This document shows, in pieces, positions 35,646-42,815 of a stretch of DNA of 64,000 bases. Location: positions 1,055 to 65,054 of the forward strand of contig JABFSR010000080.1 of the NCBI GenBank assembly GCA_013140495.1, read 5' to 3'. This DNA is from Verrucomicrobiota bacterium (GTDB lineage Bacteria; Verrucomicrobiota; Verrucomicrobiia; Limisphaerales; JADLHS01). Position 1 is the first letter of the stretch. Each line of letters begins with the position of its first letter. A program made the position numbers and the translations under genes. Below the pieces are notes generated by a model that had not been told where the DNA came from, did no database searches, and worked only from the letters and a program-made list of their open reading frames with translations.

Positions 35646-36734
35646 ATGATCGAAAGCGTCAATAACTGGCTCGAAGGTTTGAGCCCTACGCAAAGCCTGC
35701 TGCTCTTCACGAGCATCAAGGCGGTCGCGTGCTTCGCCATCATGATGACCATGGTGGCTTACACGGTCGTGCTCGAACGTCGGCTGTGCGCGTGGATTCA
35801 AGACCGCATCGGACCGAACCGCGTCGGACCATTCGGTTTGTTGCAACCAGCTGCGGACGGCATCAAAGCCTTCTTCAAGGAAGAAATGACGCCCGCGCAT
35901 GTGCGCAAAGTTTTGTTCACACTGGCGCCGATGATCGCGCTCATCCCGGCGATTTTGAACCTTGCGGTCATTCCGTTCGGCTCAAATCTCGGCGGGCAGA
36001 AGATGGTGCTCGCCGATCTCAACGTCGGCATCCTCTACACGTTCGGCATCGTGTCGCTGGGCGTTTACAGCATCGTCCTGGCGGGCTACGCGAGTAATTC
36101 CAAGTTTCCCTTCCTCGGCGGCATCCGTTCGACCGCGCAGATGATTTCCTACGAAATCGCGATGGGCATGAGCGTCATCCCGATCTTCCTCTACGTCGGC
36201 AGCCTGAACCTGAGCGATGTCATCACCGCGCAGACCGGCACGCAACTCGGCTTCCTGCCGAATTGGTTCGTGTTCCAAACGCCGATGACGTTCCTCGCGT
36301 TCTGTATCTTCCTCGTCGCGTCGTTCGCGGAAACGAATCGCACACCGTTCGATTTGCCGGAAGCCGAGCAGGAACTCGCGGGCGGTTACAACATCGAATA
36401 CAGCTCCATCAAGTTCGCGATGTTCTTCATGGGCGAATACGCGGCCATGATTCTGGTGTCGGCCATCATGGTGACGCTGTTCTTCGGCGGTTGGACGTTG
36501 CCGTGGTTCGGCCTGGATCAAGCGGCGACCACGCTGCTCGGCGGCTTGCTGCACATTGGCATTTTCCTCGGGAAGGTTTTCCTATTCCTCGTGTTGTTCG
36601 TGTGGATTCGCTGGATGTGGCCTCGTTTCCGTTACGATCAACTCATGGACTTGGGCTGGCGGCGGTTCATTCCCGTCGCGCTGGCAAACATTTTGATCAC
36701 CGCCATCTGGCTCTGGTGGCAAAGCGGCAAATAA
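35646..36734 (+). CDS. nuoH: NADH-quinone oxidoreductase subunit H
   Basis: QDRIGPNRVG, ETNRTPFDLPEAE, PRFRYDQLM. Confidence 0.97.
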   Translation: MIESVNNWLEGLSPTQSLLLFTSIKAVACFAIMMTMVAYTVVLERRLCAWIQDRIGPNRVGPFGLLQPAADGIKAFFKEEMTPAHVRKVLFTLAPMIALIPAILNLAVIPFGSNLGGQKMVLADLNVGILYTFGIVSLGVYSIVLAGYASNSKFPFLGGIRSTAQMISYEIAMGMSVIPIFLYVGSLNLSDVITAQTGTQLGFLPNWFVFQTPMTFLAFCIFLVASFAETNRTPFDLPEAEQELAGGYNIEYSSIKFAMFFMGEYAAMILVSAIMVTLFFGGWTLPWFGLDQAATTLLGGLLHIGIFLGKVFLFLVLFVWIRWMWPRFRYDQLMDLGWRRFIPVALANILITAIWLWWQSGK

Positions 36735-36735
36735 C

Positions 36736-37278
36736 ATGATCGTCAAACGCAAACCATTGAATCTGTTCGAGCGGCTTTACCTGCCGGCCATCATCGGCGG
36801 GTTCAAAGTCACGCTGCGCCACCTCTTCAAGAAGAAGGTGACGATGCAGTATCCCGAAGAGAAATGGGTCGTACCCGAGGGTTATCGTGGCGCGCCGTAT
36901 CTCGTGAAGGATCAGGAAGGTAGCACCAAATGCGTCAGTTGTCAGCTTTGCGAATTCGTCTGTCCACCAAAAGCCATCAAGATCACACCGCCCGGTCCGG
37001 CGGGACAACTCGCGGATCGTGCGAACGCGGAGAAGATGCCAAAGGAATTCGAGATCAACATGCTTCGCTGCATCTTCTGCGGCTTTTGCCAGGAAGTCTG
37101 CCCCGAGGAAGCGATCTTCCTGCAAAAGGATTACTCGCTCACCGGCACGAGCCGCGCGGAAATGGTTTACAACAAGGAAAAACTCCTTGCGCTCGGCGGC
37201 ACGCACGCTGGCGTCCAGAAATGGAAGCACAAAGCGGAAGAGGCGAAGGCGCAGGAAAATTTCCCGGTGAAGGTGTGA
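36736..37278 (+). CDS. nuoI: NADH-quinone oxidoreductase subunit I
   Basis: Two CxxCxxCxxxCP motifs. Confidence 0.96.
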   Translation: MIVKRKPLNLFERLYLPAIIGGFKVTLRHLFKKKVTMQYPEEKWVVPEGYRGAPYLVKDQEGSTKCVSCQLCEFVCPPKAIKITPPGPAGQLADRANAEKMPKEFEINMLRCIFCGFCQEVCPEEAIFLQKDYSLTGTSRAEMVYNKEKLLALGGTHAGVQKWKHKAEEAKAQENFPVKV

Positions 37279-37283
37279 TGATG

Positions 37284-37411
37284 AAGCTCCAAGCACCAAC
37301 ATCCAACATCCAGAGAAGCACTAAACCTCAAGCTCCAATCGGAGTTCGCGGCGGCTTTGATGTTTGGTCATTGGATGTTCTCTGGAGCTTGGAGCTTGGA
37401 GCTTGGAATTT
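37284..37411. repeat. gene-less palindrome of heptamer units
   Basis: Left arm AAGCTCC AAGCACC AACATCC AACATCC AGAGAA...; right arm ...TTCTCT GGAGCTT GGAGCTT GGAGCTT GGAATTT. Confidence 0.85.
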
Positions 37412-37417
37412 TTAGAG

Positions 37418-37924
37418 ATGGCAACCGATATTCTATTTTACGTCTTGGCGGCGCTGACGCTGATCTTCGGCGCGCTCGTCGTCGCGAATCCTTTCAGCCG
37501 TAACCCGGTCACGAGCGCGATGTTCCTCGTGCTGACAATCATCTCGATGGCGGGGTTGTTTGTGTTGCTGCATGCGTTCTTCCTCGCGGCGGTGCAGGTG
37601 CTGGTTTACGCGGGCGCGGTCATGGTGCTGTTTTTATTCGTCATCATGCTGCTCGACTTGAAGGAAGAAGAACGGCGCAAGATCAAGCTGATGGGGTTGG
37701 TGGCGGGTTTGATTTCCGTCGGCGCAATCGTCGCCATCTTCGTCCGCTCGCTACTGGCGACAAATCCCGGCAAAGACTTGGCTGAGCCCAAAGCCGTCGG
37801 CGACACCGCCACGCTCGGCAAGATGCTCTTCACGAATTACCTGTTGCCGTTTGAAATCGTTTCCATCCTGCTCCTCGTGGCGATGGTGGGAGTGATTTTA
37901 TTGAGCAAGAAAGACCTGAAGTAG
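37418..37924 (+). CDS. nuoJ: NADH-quinone oxidoreductase subunit J
   Basis: QVLVYAGAVMVLFLFVIMLL, PFEIVS. Confidence 0.95.
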   Translation: MATDILFYVLAALTLIFGALVVANPFSRNPVTSAMFLVLTIISMAGLFVLLHAFFLAAVQVLVYAGAVMVLFLFVIMLLDLKEEERRKIKLMGLVAGLISVGAIVAIFVRSLLATNPGKDLAEPKAVGDTATLGKMLFTNYLLPFEIVSILLLVAMVGVILLSKKDLK

Positions 37925-38427
37925 CCGCAAAAGAACGCAAAGAACACATAGAAAGGAGAATCAAAAATGCAAACCAAGACCATCAACGACTTGTGCGACA
38001 TCGTAAGGCAGACGGCTTATGACATTCACGTTTATCACGCGAATGGACACTTGGAGAAAGTCTATGAGAATGCCTTGGCGAATCGGCTTCGAAAAGCTGG
38101 ATTCGACGTGAAGCAACAGCATCCACTCAAGGTGCAAGACGAAGATGGAACGATCATTGGCGAATACTTCGCTGATCTGTTGATTGATGGTCGCCTTATT
38201 GTTGAGTTGAAAGCCGCCAAGTCAGTCGCCGATGAACACGTCGCGCAAACGCTCGGCTATTTGAAAGCGTCTCGGATTGAGCACGGCTTGCTCATCAATT
38301 TCGGCTCGTATCGGTTTGAGATTCGCAAGTTTGTATTGAGCCAAGGCAAGGCGAGTGAGGAAGGATTGGGCCGTTTGGCTTGCCTCATGCCTTTTCTCTT
38401 TGCGATCTATGCGTTCTTTCGCGGCTA
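37922..38427. mobile_element. putative element: GxxExxY gene between inverted repeats of 9-bp units
   Basis: 37922-37948 matches the reverse complement of 38401-38427 at 23 of 27 positions. Confidence 0.65.
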
Positions 38428-38428
38428 A
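37967..38428 (+). CDS. GxxExxY protein (PD-(D/E)XK nuclease fold)
   Basis: GHLEKVY, ADLLID...VELKA, LLINFG; SD AAAGGAG. Confidence 0.9.
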   Translation: MQTKTINDLCDIVRQTAYDIHVYHANGHLEKVYENALANRLRKAGFDVKQQHPLKVQDEDGTIIGEYFADLLIDGRLIVELKAAKSVADEHVAQTLGYLKASRIEHGLLINFGSYRFEIRKFVLSQGKASEEGLGRLACLMPFLFAIYAFFRG

Positions 38429-38434
38429 AAAGTA

Positions 38435-38740
38435 ATGAATGTAGGACTCGAACATTATCTGATCGTCAGCGCGTTGTTATTCGCGCTCGGTTTGCTGGGC
38501 GTTATCACGCGGCGCAACCTCATCGTGATCTACATGTCGCTGGAGTTGATGCTCAACTCGGCGAACCTCGCGCTCGTTTCCTTTTCGCGGTTCAACGACA
38601 ATCTCAACGGCCAGGTGATGGTGTTTTTCATCATCACCGTGGCGGCGGCGGAAGTCGCCGTCGGCCTCGCGCTCATCGTGGCGCTCTATCGCAAGCGCCA
38701 GTCCGCGCATGTGGAGGACCTGACCTCGATGAAATACTGA
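38435..38740 (+). CDS. nuoK: NADH-quinone oxidoreductase subunit K
   Basis: SLELMLNSANL, VAAAEVAVGLA. Confidence 0.96.
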   Translation: MNVGLEHYLIVSALLFALGLLGVITRRNLIVIYMSLELMLNSANLALVSFSRFNDNLNGQVMVFFIITVAAAEVAVGLALIVALYRKRQSAHVEDLTSMKY

Positions 38741-38743
38741 CGG

Positions 38744-40609
<1,866 letters not shown>

Positions 40610-40620
40610 CATGAGAATTC

Positions 40621-41260
40621 AACGCAAAGGCGCAAAGACGCAAAGACGCAAAGAGGGAAGGATTTTCCTTCCCGTTGCGTGTTGGCGTGTTGGCGTGCTG
40701 GCGTTTAAGAAAGGTGGTCTGGCATGACCGAAAACGAGATTGCCAAGATTATCGTGGACGCCGCGATTGAAGTGCATCGCGAACTCGGTGGGCCGGGCTT
40801 GCTTGAGGATGTTTATGAAGAAGCCTTGGCGGAAGAATTGCGACTACGCGGCTTGAAAGTGGAGCGCCAGCTTCCAGTGCGGATTACCTATAAAGGTCGC
40901 GTGTTGAGCAAACCACTCCGTCTGGACATGAAGGTCGAGGGCTTGGTCTTGGTGGACAACAAAGCTGTGACCGAGTGGAATCCGATTTTTGAGGCACAGA
41001 TGCAAACTTACTTGCGTCTCACCGGTCTCAAGTTGGGTTTGGTAATCAATTTCGGCGAAAGACTCGTGAAGCACGGGATTCATCGGGTAGTGAATGGTCT
41101 GCCGGAAGACTTGGATTTTAAGCCGCAGCCGAAGCGCAAAGACAAGACGGACAACAATTGAAATTCGTGGCAATGAATAAACGCAATGACACAAAGGCGC
41201 AAAGAGGCGGAGAAAGGAAATGTTTTCCTTTGCGTCTTTGCGTCTTTGCGCCTTTGCGTT
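40621..41260. mobile_element. putative element: GxxExxY gene between two hairpins of 8-bp units, with a perfect 33-bp terminal inverted repeat
   Basis: 40621-40653 AACGCAAAGGCGCAAAGACGCAAAGACGCAAAG is the exact reverse complement of 41228-41260. Confidence 0.7.
40724..41161 (+). CDS. GxxExxY protein (PD-(D/E)XK nuclease fold)
   Basis: GPGLLEDVY, RLDMKV...VDNKA, GLVINFG. Confidence 0.9.
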   Translation: MTENEIAKIIVDAAIEVHRELGGPGLLEDVYEEALAEELRLRGLKVERQLPVRITYKGRVLSKPLRLDMKVEGLVLVDNKAVTEWNPIFEAQMQTYLRLTGLKLGLVINFGERLVKHGIHRVVNGLPEDLDFKPQPKRKDKTDNN

Positions 41261-41267
41261 AAAAAAG

Positions 41268-42815
41268 ATGACGACCCTGACCTACATTTTCCTGTTGCCA
41301 TTGCTCGCCGCAATCGCGCTGGCGTTTGTGCCGCGTAACTTTGCCGTCATCATGCGCGCCGTGGCGGTGGGCGTGACTTTCGTCACCATGCTGCTCGGCA
41401 TCCTGATGTTCTGGCAGTTCAACGGCGCAACGGCCGACGCTAATGGCTACAAGTTCGTCAGCACAATTCCGTGGCTGGGCGCGGAATCGCTCGGCATCGC
41501 CTGCAAGTTCGGCGTGGATGGCCTGAACGTCGGGCTGGTCTTGATGGGCGCAATTGTCGCGTTTGCGGCGGCGTGCTGCTCGTTCGAGATCAAGACGCGC
41601 GAGAAGGAGTTTTATATCCTGCTGCTCGTAATGACCGGCGGTATTCTCGGCGCGTTCATGTCCACGGACCTGTTCTTCTTCTACTTCTTCCATGAACTCG
41701 CGCTCGTACCGACGTTCATCATGATCGGCGTGTGGGGTCGCGGCGAGCGGAAGAACTTTGCGACGTTCCAGATCACGATCTACCTGAGCATCGGCGCATT
41801 GCTGGCGCTCATCGGCCTCATCGCGCTTTATCTGCAACTGCCCACCGATGTCCGCACGTTCGACATCCCAACGCTGACGAAGTATTTCGCCGAACACACG
41901 ATGGCCGCGAGCGCGCAGAACTTCATCTTCCCGCTGCTGCTGTTCGGATTCGGAATTCTCGTGTCGCTCTGGCCGTTCCATTCGTGGGCGGCATTGGGCT
42001 ACGGTTCTGCGCCGAGCGCGACGGCGATGTTGCACGCGGGCGTGCTGAAGAAGTTCGGGCTTTACGGTCTGATCCGCGTGGCGCTGCCGTTCATGCCGCA
42101 GGCGGCGCAAAGTTGGATGCAAATCCTCGCGTGGCTCTGCCTCGGCAACGTGCTTTACGTCGGCTGGGTGGCAATGCGGCAGAAGAATCTCAATCTGCTC
42201 ATCGGCAACTCCAGCGTGGCGCACATGGGCATGATCTTCCTTGGCATCGCGAGCTTGAACCTCATCGGCGTGACCGGCGCGGTGGTCATCATGATCGCGC
42301 ACGGCTTCCTCGCGGCGCTGACGTTTGGCTTGAGCGGCTACATCTACAATCAGACCGGCACGCTGGAAATGAGCGAACTTGGCGGGCTTGCGAAGAAGCT
42401 GCGGTTCATCGGCGTGGCGTTCGTGATGGCCGCGATGGCGGGCTGCGGCCTGCCGGGCTTCCTGAATTTCGTCGGCGAGGTCACCGTGTTTTTTGGGGCG
42501 TGGCAAGTACCTGCTTTGCGTTTGGTGACGGTGCTGGCGGTCTGGGGGGCGTTGATCATCGGGGCGGTTTACATGCTGCGCGCAGTGCGGGCAGTGATGC
42601 ATGGGCCGGCGCAGGAGGATAAGACTTATGCGACGAATGTGACGGATGCGAATCTGTGGCGAAAGCTGCCTTACGCGATCTTGATCGCGAGCTTGCTGGT
42701 GTTTGGGTTTTTCCCGCGCTTCTTGACCGACAAGATCAAGCCGGTGACGGAACAGATTGTGAATATGGCGACGACCGGAGTTGCGAAAACCATCGTGGCG
42801 CAATCGAAGCCGTGA
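41268..42815 (+). CDS. nuoM: NADH-quinone oxidoreductase subunit M
   Basis: FHELALVP, PFHSW, LKKFGLYG, SSVAHMG, GLPG. Confidence 0.95.
   Translation: MTTLTYIFLLPLLAAIALAFVPRNFAVIMRAVAVGVTFVTMLLGILMFWQFNGATADANGYKFVSTIPWLGAESLGIACKFGVDGLNVGLVLMGAIVAFAAACCSFEIKTREKEFYILLLVMTGGILGAFMSTDLFFFYFFHELALVPTFIMIGVWGRGERKNFATFQITIYLSIGALLALIGLIALYLQLPTDVRTFDIPTLTKYFAEHTMAASAQNFIFPLLLFGFGILVSLWPFHSWAALGYGSAPSATAMLHAGVLKKFGLYGLIRVALPFMPQAAQSWMQILAWLCLGNVLYVGWVAMRQKNLNLLIGNSSVAHMGMIFLGIASLNLIGVTGAVVIMIAHGFLAALTFGLSGYIYNQTGTLEMSELGGLAKKLRFIGVAFVMAAMAGCGLPGFLNFVGEVTVFFGAWQVPALRLVTVLAVWGALIIGAVYMLRAVRAVMHGPAQEDKTYATNVTDANLWRKLPYAILIASLLVFGFFPRFLTDKIKPVTEQIVNMATTGVAKTIVAQSKP

Follow-up and report, generated by a model that had tools for sequence, protein, structure and literature searches.

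A GxxExxY gene in periodic inverted arms between nuoJ and nuoK: a well-bounded member of a widespread class of hairpin cassettes

The locus

The window studied here is a stretch of 64,000 nucleotides (nt) from a Verrucomicrobiota bacterium (GenBank assembly GCA_013140495.1, contig JABFSR010000080.1). In its source genome, labelled G000, it is C39:1055-65054. Bare coordinates below are positions in the window; those with a C number refer to contigs of the source genome. Between the genes nuoJ and nuoK lies a small open reading frame (ORF) of the GxxExxY family (PF13366), enclosed by two inverted arms that consist of short tandem units. Gene and arms together are called the cassette here. It is a well-bounded member of a widespread class of hairpin cassettes, and it is made up of the following parts.

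37922..38434, + strand: the whole cassette, which fills the nuoJ-nuoK spacer; 513 nt, versus 0-2 nt in 8 of 30 related loci
37922..37952, + strand: left arm, about three 9-nt units (TAGCCGCAA / AAGAACGCA / AAGAACACA ...), from a repeat search and from reading the sequence
37953..37958, + strand: Shine-Dalgarno-like AAGGAG, 8 nt before the ATG, as read from the sequence
37967..38428, + strand: GxxExxY gene with a predicted PD-(D/E)XK nuclease fold, from profile matches, an alignment, AlphaFold2 (AF2) and Foldseek
38397..38427, + strand: right arm, the reverse complement of the left arm, inside the 3' end of the ORF, from the repeat search and the sequence

The ORF starts with ATG and encodes 153 amino acids (aa). 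An earlier sequence-only reading had placed a GxxExxY gene in inverted repeats of roughly 9-nt units between nuoJ and nuoK. This is confirmed: the inverted repeat has a score of 16, which is reached by 0 out of 500 shuffles of the flanks (mean 8.3, maximum 12). That reading gave the arms a complementarity of 23 out of 27. The inverted repeat stands, but the length does not, since the arms extend over 31 nt, of which 26 are complementary (84%). They are 444 nt apart. A 16-nt word that covers two arm units occurs 3 times in the window with at most 2 mismatches, versus an expected 0.06.

The first three bases of the left arm are the stop codon of nuoJ (PF00499 match), TAG at 37922-37924, and AAGGAG follows directly after the arm, just as described earlier. 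The right arm was said to encode the protein's own tail and stop (FAIYAFFRG*). The sequence bears this out: the arm encodes ...LFAIYAFFRG, and then comes the stop TAA. The ATG of nuoK (PF00420 match) is found at 38435.

Among the Logan contigs of DNA sequencing runs, one (X1) is identical to the window over 37300-38709. A second Logan contig (X2), from a relative that is around 94% alike, terminates in an empty-type junction. A third (X3, depth 2, side 27) joins 37960 to 38397, which amounts to arms without the gene; it might also come from another locus or organism.

In the minimum-free-energy fold of 37915-38440, the cassette is closed by its two arms (z = -2.65). A scan for promoters and terminators found no excess of such sites. 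Given this, the co-orientation with the operon and the Shine-Dalgarno sequence of its own, the cassette would be expressed from the nuo operon.

The protein

The protein matches the NCBIfam profile TIGR04256 (GxxExxY) with an E value of 1.6e-32 (112.3 bits, cut-off 35) and the Pfam profile PF13366 (PDDEXK_3) with an E value of 8.9e-30 (103.9 bits, cut-off 22). The residues G27-x-x-E30-x-x-Y33, D70, E80-L-K82 and Q94...Y98 are all intact. Across an alignment of 76 sequences, G27, E30, Y33, K82, Q94, L99 and N111 are invariant, and D70, E80 and Y98 are conserved in at least 90%. The D..ELK motif (D70, E80-L-K82), which had been called intact, is therefore not only present but also conserved in that alignment.

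Given an alignment, AF2 produces a model with a predicted local distance difference test (pLDDT) score of 87.3, where the core (residues 1-123) scores above 90 and the tail around 50. The model made without an alignment is poor (pLDDT 51). The best Foldseek matches of the model are Cas4 SSO0001, the AdnAB nuclease domain, the Holliday-junction resolvase Hjc and lambda exonuclease; the match to Cas4 SSO0001 (4ic1) has an E value of 1.8e-4 and a TMq of 0.48-0.50. A search by sequence for the solved structure of a relative detected none. AF2 and Foldseek agree with the PD-(D/E)XK fold that the sequence-only reading had assigned, and at the level of such models they confirm a restriction-endonuclease-like fold of the Cas4/Hjc kind.

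Among the defence models of PADLOC, the protein has only a weak partial match to PDC-S02 (E 0.0049, 14.2 bits, residues 76-122), and a paralogue elsewhere in the window (40724-41161, see below) has no match at all. There is no match in the PHROGs phage families either. A phage as vehicle was rejected, as there are only 2 distant relatives (31-40% identity) among viral contigs.

PMC3424549 lists PF13366 as 'Unknown' with 'multiple transfers', and the myRT paper merely mentions a GxxExxY domain beside a reverse transcriptase.

Gene and arms across phyla

A scan of one genome per species finds 315 relatives of the protein. The analyses of the arms use the best 80 of these, which are 58-92% identical to the target. 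They come from Verrucomicrobiota, Planctomycetota, Chloroflexota, Acidobacteriota, Nitrospirota, Cyanobacteria, Acidimicrobiia, Trichlorobacter, Saccharimonadales and others. Of these, only 7 are located between nuoJ and nuoK.

The sequence-only reading had proposed a survey of the flanks of GxxExxY genes. Among the 76 of the best 80 that have a clean ORF, 52 have flanking inverted repeats with a score of at least 14. This is the case for 0 of 133 control windows, which were shifted by 1.3 kb. Such flanks are enriched around these genes.

The arms of the target's relatives are of one unit family, TTA(A/G)CCGCAAAGAACGCARAGA... The paralogue has its own set of relatives, 48-67% identical, with a match at E <= 1e-20 in 121 of 301 genomes from the phylum. 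Their arms consist of 8-nt CGCAAAGN units, with ends TTCAACGC...GCGTTGAA.

The two arms of a locus resemble each other more than they resemble the arms of other loci. Over 39 loci, the agreement is 22.97 within loci and 16.44 between loci (standard deviation 0.93). None of 2000 permutations reaches the observed value, a count that overstates the significance because the loci are related to one another. The agreement includes a one-base length state of the first unit, which both arms share. An asymmetry between left and right is conserved as well: the third unit reads CAC in the left arm and CGC in the right one. The GxxExxY gene takes its arms with it.

From about residue 130 onwards, the tail of the target protein is encoded by the right arm. 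Among the best 80 relatives, 31 end before the arm and 45 continue into it. On these endings, and on the tail pLDDT of around 50, the idea that the C-terminal tail is a functional domain was rejected. The tail seems to arise where translation reads on into conserved arm DNA.

The nuoJ|nuoK site in related genomes

The survey of nuo junctions covers 30 loci from 41 related genomes. Empty-site alleles had been suggested as something to look for, and they exist: in 8 of the 30 loci, the nuoJ|nuoK junction is empty, with 0-2 nt and the stop-start overlap AAATGA. A GxxExxY cassette is found in 6 loci, a gene-less hairpin in 13, a 14-nt remnant in 1 and something else in 2. The nuoK|nuoL junction has a similar variety of states.

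The gene-less hairpins at nuoJ|nuoK are 82-192 nt long and belong to several unit families. Those of L010, L011 and L016 measure 82 nt and share the target cassette's unit family, as expected of derivatives with an internal deletion. The remnant, in L022, is identical to the outermost 14 nt of the left arm.

In a NuoJ+NuoK+NuoL tree (for NuoL, the first 225 aa) the states of the site are interspersed. The target locus is sister to an empty locus (SH-aLRT 94), and an 82-nt hairpin comes next.

The age of the cassette gene can be estimated from its divergence. Over the 36 pairs that can be made from 9 occupied loci, nonsynonymous divergence (dN) is 0.03-0.16, synonymous divergence (dS) runs from 0.7 to saturation, and dN/dS is around 0.05. 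None of the 36 pairs has a dS for the cassette gene below that of nuoJ, nuoK or nuoL, which means vertical inheritance with repeated loss. The cassette is an old resident of an order-level clade, and its protein is under strong purifying selection.

Traces of insertion

Some relatives still show how an insert may have entered. At nuoJ|nuoK, the inserts of L009, L010 and L011 are flanked left and right by (G)AAATGA, as are those of L016 and L021 with one change. At nuoK|nuoL, at least 6 inserts from at least 2 unit families have a second ATGAAA, the start of nuoL, to their left. A dispersed element of another family, present in 8 copies in the source genome and described below, is flanked by TTAG or TAAG, and left equals right in 6 of 6 readable copies. 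Read as sequence, the repeats at the junctions and around the 8-copy element point to an insertion that would duplicate a few bases of an A/T-rich target.

Further cassettes and hairpins in the source genome

The window contains more elements of this kind, all within the nuo operon.

37286..37407, + strand: gene-less hairpin of 7-nt units (CCAAGCA / CCAACAT ... TGGAGCT) in the nuoI-nuoJ spacer; same class, with a unit unlike the target's
40613..41262, + strand: second cassette, between nuoL and nuoM, made up of a hairpin, a GxxExxY gene and a second hairpin
40619-40707, + strand: first hairpin of the second cassette, 8-nt CGCAAAGA units, upstream of the paralogue
40724-41161, + strand: second GxxExxY gene (the paralogue), 145 aa, around 32% identical to the target
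41178-41262, + strand: second hairpin of the nuoL-nuoM cassette, beyond the paralogue, likewise of CGCAAAGA units

The outer arms of the nuoL-nuoM cassette (40621-40653 / 41228-41260) are complementary over 33 of 33 positions. To the left of this insert, the ATGA of the nuoM start is repeated. The longest ORF of nuoJ begins with a TTG at 37364, inside the nuoI-nuoJ hairpin. Because of this, the true start of nuoJ is probably the ATG near 37418.

The source genome has 4 GxxExxY matches. All 4 have adjacent tandem-unit hairpins, each with a different unit, and 3 of the 4 genes are bracketed by an inverted repeat with a score of at least 16. Arms of the same kind also surround an unrelated type of gene, the four-helix-bundle or 23S_rRNA_IVP family, for which there are 10 TIGR02436 matches (9 PF05635 matches above the cut-off). 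Bracketing at a score of at least 16 is found for 7 of these 10, and an eighth (on C96) is weaker. Of the remaining two, one gene sits at a contig end and the other match is marginal.

A census of the source genome for inverted pairs with periodic arms (unit period 6-10 nt) counts 65, versus 0 in an order-1 shuffled genome. Where the loop measures about 470-540 nt, it holds either a GxxExxY or a four-helix-bundle / 23S_rRNA_IVP gene. Within this genome, gene-carrying and gene-less hairpins have unit types in common. In addition, the unit clusters contain three large gene-less families that lack a cargo-bearing member: AACCACGAAA (8 copies), GCGTGGT (7) and CCAAGCT (around 5). The latter two were assigned by reading units inside coarse clusters, and the assembly is 95.6% complete.

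The 8-copy element mentioned above is about 230 nt long. Its outer ends resemble TTAGCCGG...CCGGCTAA; inside these lie periodic arms, AACCACGAAATACACGAA..., and a loop of 108 nt. Aligned over 290 columns, seven of the eight copies are 86-97% alike. No cargo-bearing member of it was found in the assembly. Its copies are located as follows.

C122:20792-20955, C154:7004-7252, C195:240-403, C245:1870-2033: copies 1-4, source genome
C53:4561-4699, C73:3296-3459, C83:9405-9568, C85:13608-13771: copies 5-8, source genome

Rfam finds no ribosomal RNA (rRNA) in 36500-42000, and only sub-threshold look-alikes of miRNA precursors on the neighbouring hairpins.

Comparison with known systems

The closest known relative of the cassette is the intervening sequence (IVS) of 23S rRNA. 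As described in PMC4990558, the Coxiella IVS is 428-444 nt long and has a terminal stem of 28 bp with an S23p ORF in the loop. Its 5' arm consists of three tandem heptamers (GACAGAT x3), and RNase III cuts it in mid-stem. Such sequences, with an S23p / four-helix-bundle ORF, are reported there for Coxiella, Leptospira, Brucella and Xanthomonas. The IVS is acquired horizontally and then retained vertically, and its authors call it a selfish element.

The cassette has much in common with the IVS as that source presents it: the size (around 430-510 nt), a stem that measures some 28-31 bp, a loop that contains a single small ORF, arms of short tandem units, no transposase, a sporadic distribution, and horizontal transfer followed by vertical retention. 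The source genome moreover has IVS-type protein genes (PF05635) in the same kind of arms, outside of rRNA. It departs from the IVS in two defining features. The target lies in a spacer of a protein-coding operon and not in a 23S rRNA helix, and its cargo is a putative PD-(D/E)XK nuclease (PF13366) and not S23p (PF05635). The target ORF is also strongly constrained, whereas the Coxiella ORF is reported as decaying. Excision by RNase III is a feature of the IVS; the cassette is known here from its DNA.

Repetitive extragenic palindromes (REP, REPIN) and their associated tyrosine transposases (RAYT) share with the cassette that intergenic hairpin repeats, often inside operons, occur in gene-carrying and gene-less forms and without a classical transposase. 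They differ in that the cassettes have a PD-(D/E)XK or four-helix-bundle cargo, arms of tandem 7-10-nt units, and many unit families that each have a low copy number. Membership of this system was rejected: the 6 Y1_Tnp genes of the source genome have non-periodic palindromes and no periodic hairpin at their flanks. These genes form a separate REP-like system (IS200/RAYT-like), with conserved palindromes, for example CCCAGGGTAGCTCGTTCCTCGCAACCCTGGG. One of them is 600 nt from the GxxExxY gene on C31.

C122:45697-46035, C31:3227-3568, C81:12491-12835, plus three weaker matches: Y1 transposase genes, source genome

Miniature inverted-repeat transposable elements (MITEs) and mobile insertion cassettes have terminal inverted repeats, a small size, possible target duplications, passenger genes and derivatives with internal deletions. 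The cassette and its class are like them in these respects, with target duplication a possible shared feature. Unlike in MITEs, its class has extremely diverse arm sequences under one architecture, and target duplication is seen at some sites only.

Homing endonuclease genes are also small nuclease genes that sit between conserved genes and show presence/absence polymorphism. The inverted periodic arms of the cassette are not a feature of such genes. A free-standing homing endonuclease gene was rejected because it fails the age test: by dS, the gene is not younger than its flanks (36 of 36 pairs). A further comparison is with maintenance nucleases of the TnpB type (PMC10690162). The idea that a nuclease that is not a transposase retains its element by cutting vacated sites would fit here too, with the difference that no guide RNA is known for the cassette. 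An integron attC cassette was dropped as a candidate, given that the window has no array and no integrase context.

A search of the literature on GxxExxY, on PF13366 / PDDEXK_3 / TIGR04256, and on IVS and mobile elements found no account of such cassettes. Apart from its rRNA-borne form, the class of periodic-arm hairpins appears to be unpublished.

Explanations

The target is probably an old, vertically inherited copy of a cargo-carrying hairpin cassette with periodic arms, built like an IVS. The class to which it belongs would then, again probably, consist of two inverted arms, made of 7-10-nt units, and between them a loop that holds at most one small gene. Inserts of this kind appear to have entered the nuoJ/nuoK overlap AAATGA with a target duplication in relatives that have them at the same site, and this copy may well have entered in the same way. 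Its transcript would be that of the nuo operon, and translation would start from the cassette's own Shine-Dalgarno sequence. In the transcript, the arms are predicted to pair into a stem of about 31 bp, which RNase III could possibly cut as it does in the IVS. In that case the operon would hardly suffer from the insert. Gene and arms have moved between phyla over long times, and in this clade the cassette has repeatedly been lost, leaving behind arm-only hairpins, a footprint or an empty site.

Judging by its residues, the nuclease is presumably active, and it is under strong selection. Its role would be in maintaining or spreading the cassette, with its own arms or vacated sites as targets, or it could provide an unrelated benefit. 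Both seem likelier than transposition. The nuclease is unlikely to be a transposase because the same chassis occurs without any gene and also with an unrelated four-helix-bundle gene.

Several results weigh against this explanation. Strong purifying selection and a long vertical history fit a gene that is useful to the host equally well. The dS values of the 36 pairs give no sign of recent mobility of this copy. The sequence-only reading had proposed a minimal mobile cassette, and had named two things that together would speak against it: no enrichment of such flanks around GxxExxY genes, and vertical conservation at the site. The first is clearly not the case. The second is, over an order-level clade and as judged by dS in 36 of 36 pairs. 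What survives of the proposal is a discrete cassette, without a recognised transposase, whose arms travel with its gene; recent movement at this site does not. A further copy of the target cassette's unit was looked for in the source genome and not found.

No signal of selection for a stem in the sense RNA was found: over 40 loci, the arms have 115 mismatches, and the 96 transitions among these would be G.U pairs in the sense strand in 36 cases and in the antisense strand in 60. Part of this skew is the conserved CAC/CGC asymmetry of the third unit. Across phyla, co-orientation with both neighbours occurs in 35 of 75 loci, which by a rough ORF call is only a moderate bias. There is also no general target duplication. 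In the 48 loci of the target's clade, a terminal direct repeat of at least 5 nt is seen in 5, versus 2.5 expected by chance with a maximum of 8, and the duplication of stop and start codons at the nuo junctions is partly forced by selection.

A rather unlikely alternative is that the cassette is an autonomous element, whose GxxExxY protein binds its own arm units, cuts and moves the cassette or homes into empty sites. The gene-less hairpins would then be non-autonomous derivatives, in line with the units they share with gene-carrying members of the genome. Protein clade and arm unit are indeed paired in two independent clades, but linkage alone explains such pairing. In its favour are the intact nuclease residues, a dN/dS of around 0.05, and a predicted Hjc/Cas4-like fold, which is that of structure-specific or end-specific nucleases. 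Presence/absence polymorphism at nuoJ|nuoK would also follow, yet dS shows no sign of re-invasion among the 9 copies there. Harder to reconcile with it are the non-enzymatic four-helix-bundle protein that sits in the same chassis in 7-8 of 10 cases, and the three large gene-less families without a cargo-bearing member in a genome that is 95.6% complete.

It is tentative, and on balance doubtful, that the cargo protein, be it the GxxExxY nuclease or the Avd-like four-helix bundle, reads its own arm units and so drives insertion, retention or copying. Under this speculative extension there would be one protein clade for each unit 'code', and the whole would be mobile DNA that crosses phyla without a canonical transposase, with the IVS as the only described instance.

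Less likely still is that the arms are terminal inverted repeats of a MITE or mobile insertion cassette, served in trans by a conventional transposase (a DDE transposase, for example). The nuclease would be a passenger, and the periodicity would reflect sub-terminal binding sites. It would fit with the repeats resembling target duplications that the 8-copy family and two nuo junctions show, with the conserved CAC/CGC asymmetry of the arms and with the lack of a strand-specific RNA signal. But dozens of unrelated units share one architecture, so each would need a transposase of its own. No transposase was seen with periodic arms, in a search that covered Y1_Tnp only and did not survey the DDE families, and the 6 Y1 genes come with different, non-periodic palindromes. 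The two arms are moreover kept alike within loci.

It is very improbable that the hairpins are operon punctuation in the service of the host, acting as signals for RNA processing, stability or decoupling, with the nuclease as a domesticated housekeeping or defence gene. This would account for the long vertical retention under strong purifying selection, for the presence of such elements in three nuo spacers of the window, and for the arms closing the cassette in the RNA fold. Against this, sister genomes fare well with an empty junction of 0-2 nt (8 of 30 loci), the units vary by site and by genome, many phyla have gene and arms at unrelated sites, and the only match to a defence model is the weak and partial one to PDC-S02.

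With the IVS-like hairpin cassette as the favoured reading, two large families of unassigned function, GxxExxY (PF13366) and the S23p four-helix bundle, turn up in one repeat-armed hairpin chassis. That chassis also builds the classical rRNA intervening sequence, which joins three unexplained things in one testable class of elements. The nuoJ|nuoK site is a useful test bed, as it offers empty, arm-only, footprint and gene-carrying states at one orthologous site in an essential operon, and a protein that is small, intact and strongly constrained. If cargo proteins were to read arm units after all, this would amount to a new, protein-programmed kind of DNA movement, and to a function for the GxxExxY and S23p families.

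Other observations

The survey of nuo junctions came with some additional data. In L026 (genome G019), nuoJ is matched in two separate pieces, and the match to nuoK, which contains an in-frame TAG, is missing its first 9 residues. This may be a damaged operon or an assembly problem.

Some gene-less hairpins have GC-rich palindromes nested in their loops, for example GGGACGAGCTGCCGCTCGTCCC and GTAGCAGCCGACG...CGTCGGCTGCTAC. This is the case in L006, L008 and L019 at nuoJ|nuoK, and in L017 and L018 at nuoK|nuoL. The palindromes recur between genomes and may be nested elements.

Two nuoK|nuoL spacers hold inserts of cassette size. The one in L019 is 458 nt long and has CGCAAAGA arms; its cargo matched neither GxxExxY query. 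The spacer of L013 (460 nt) contains a GxxExxY gene that is 47% identical to the second paralogue, between CGCAGAGA arms.

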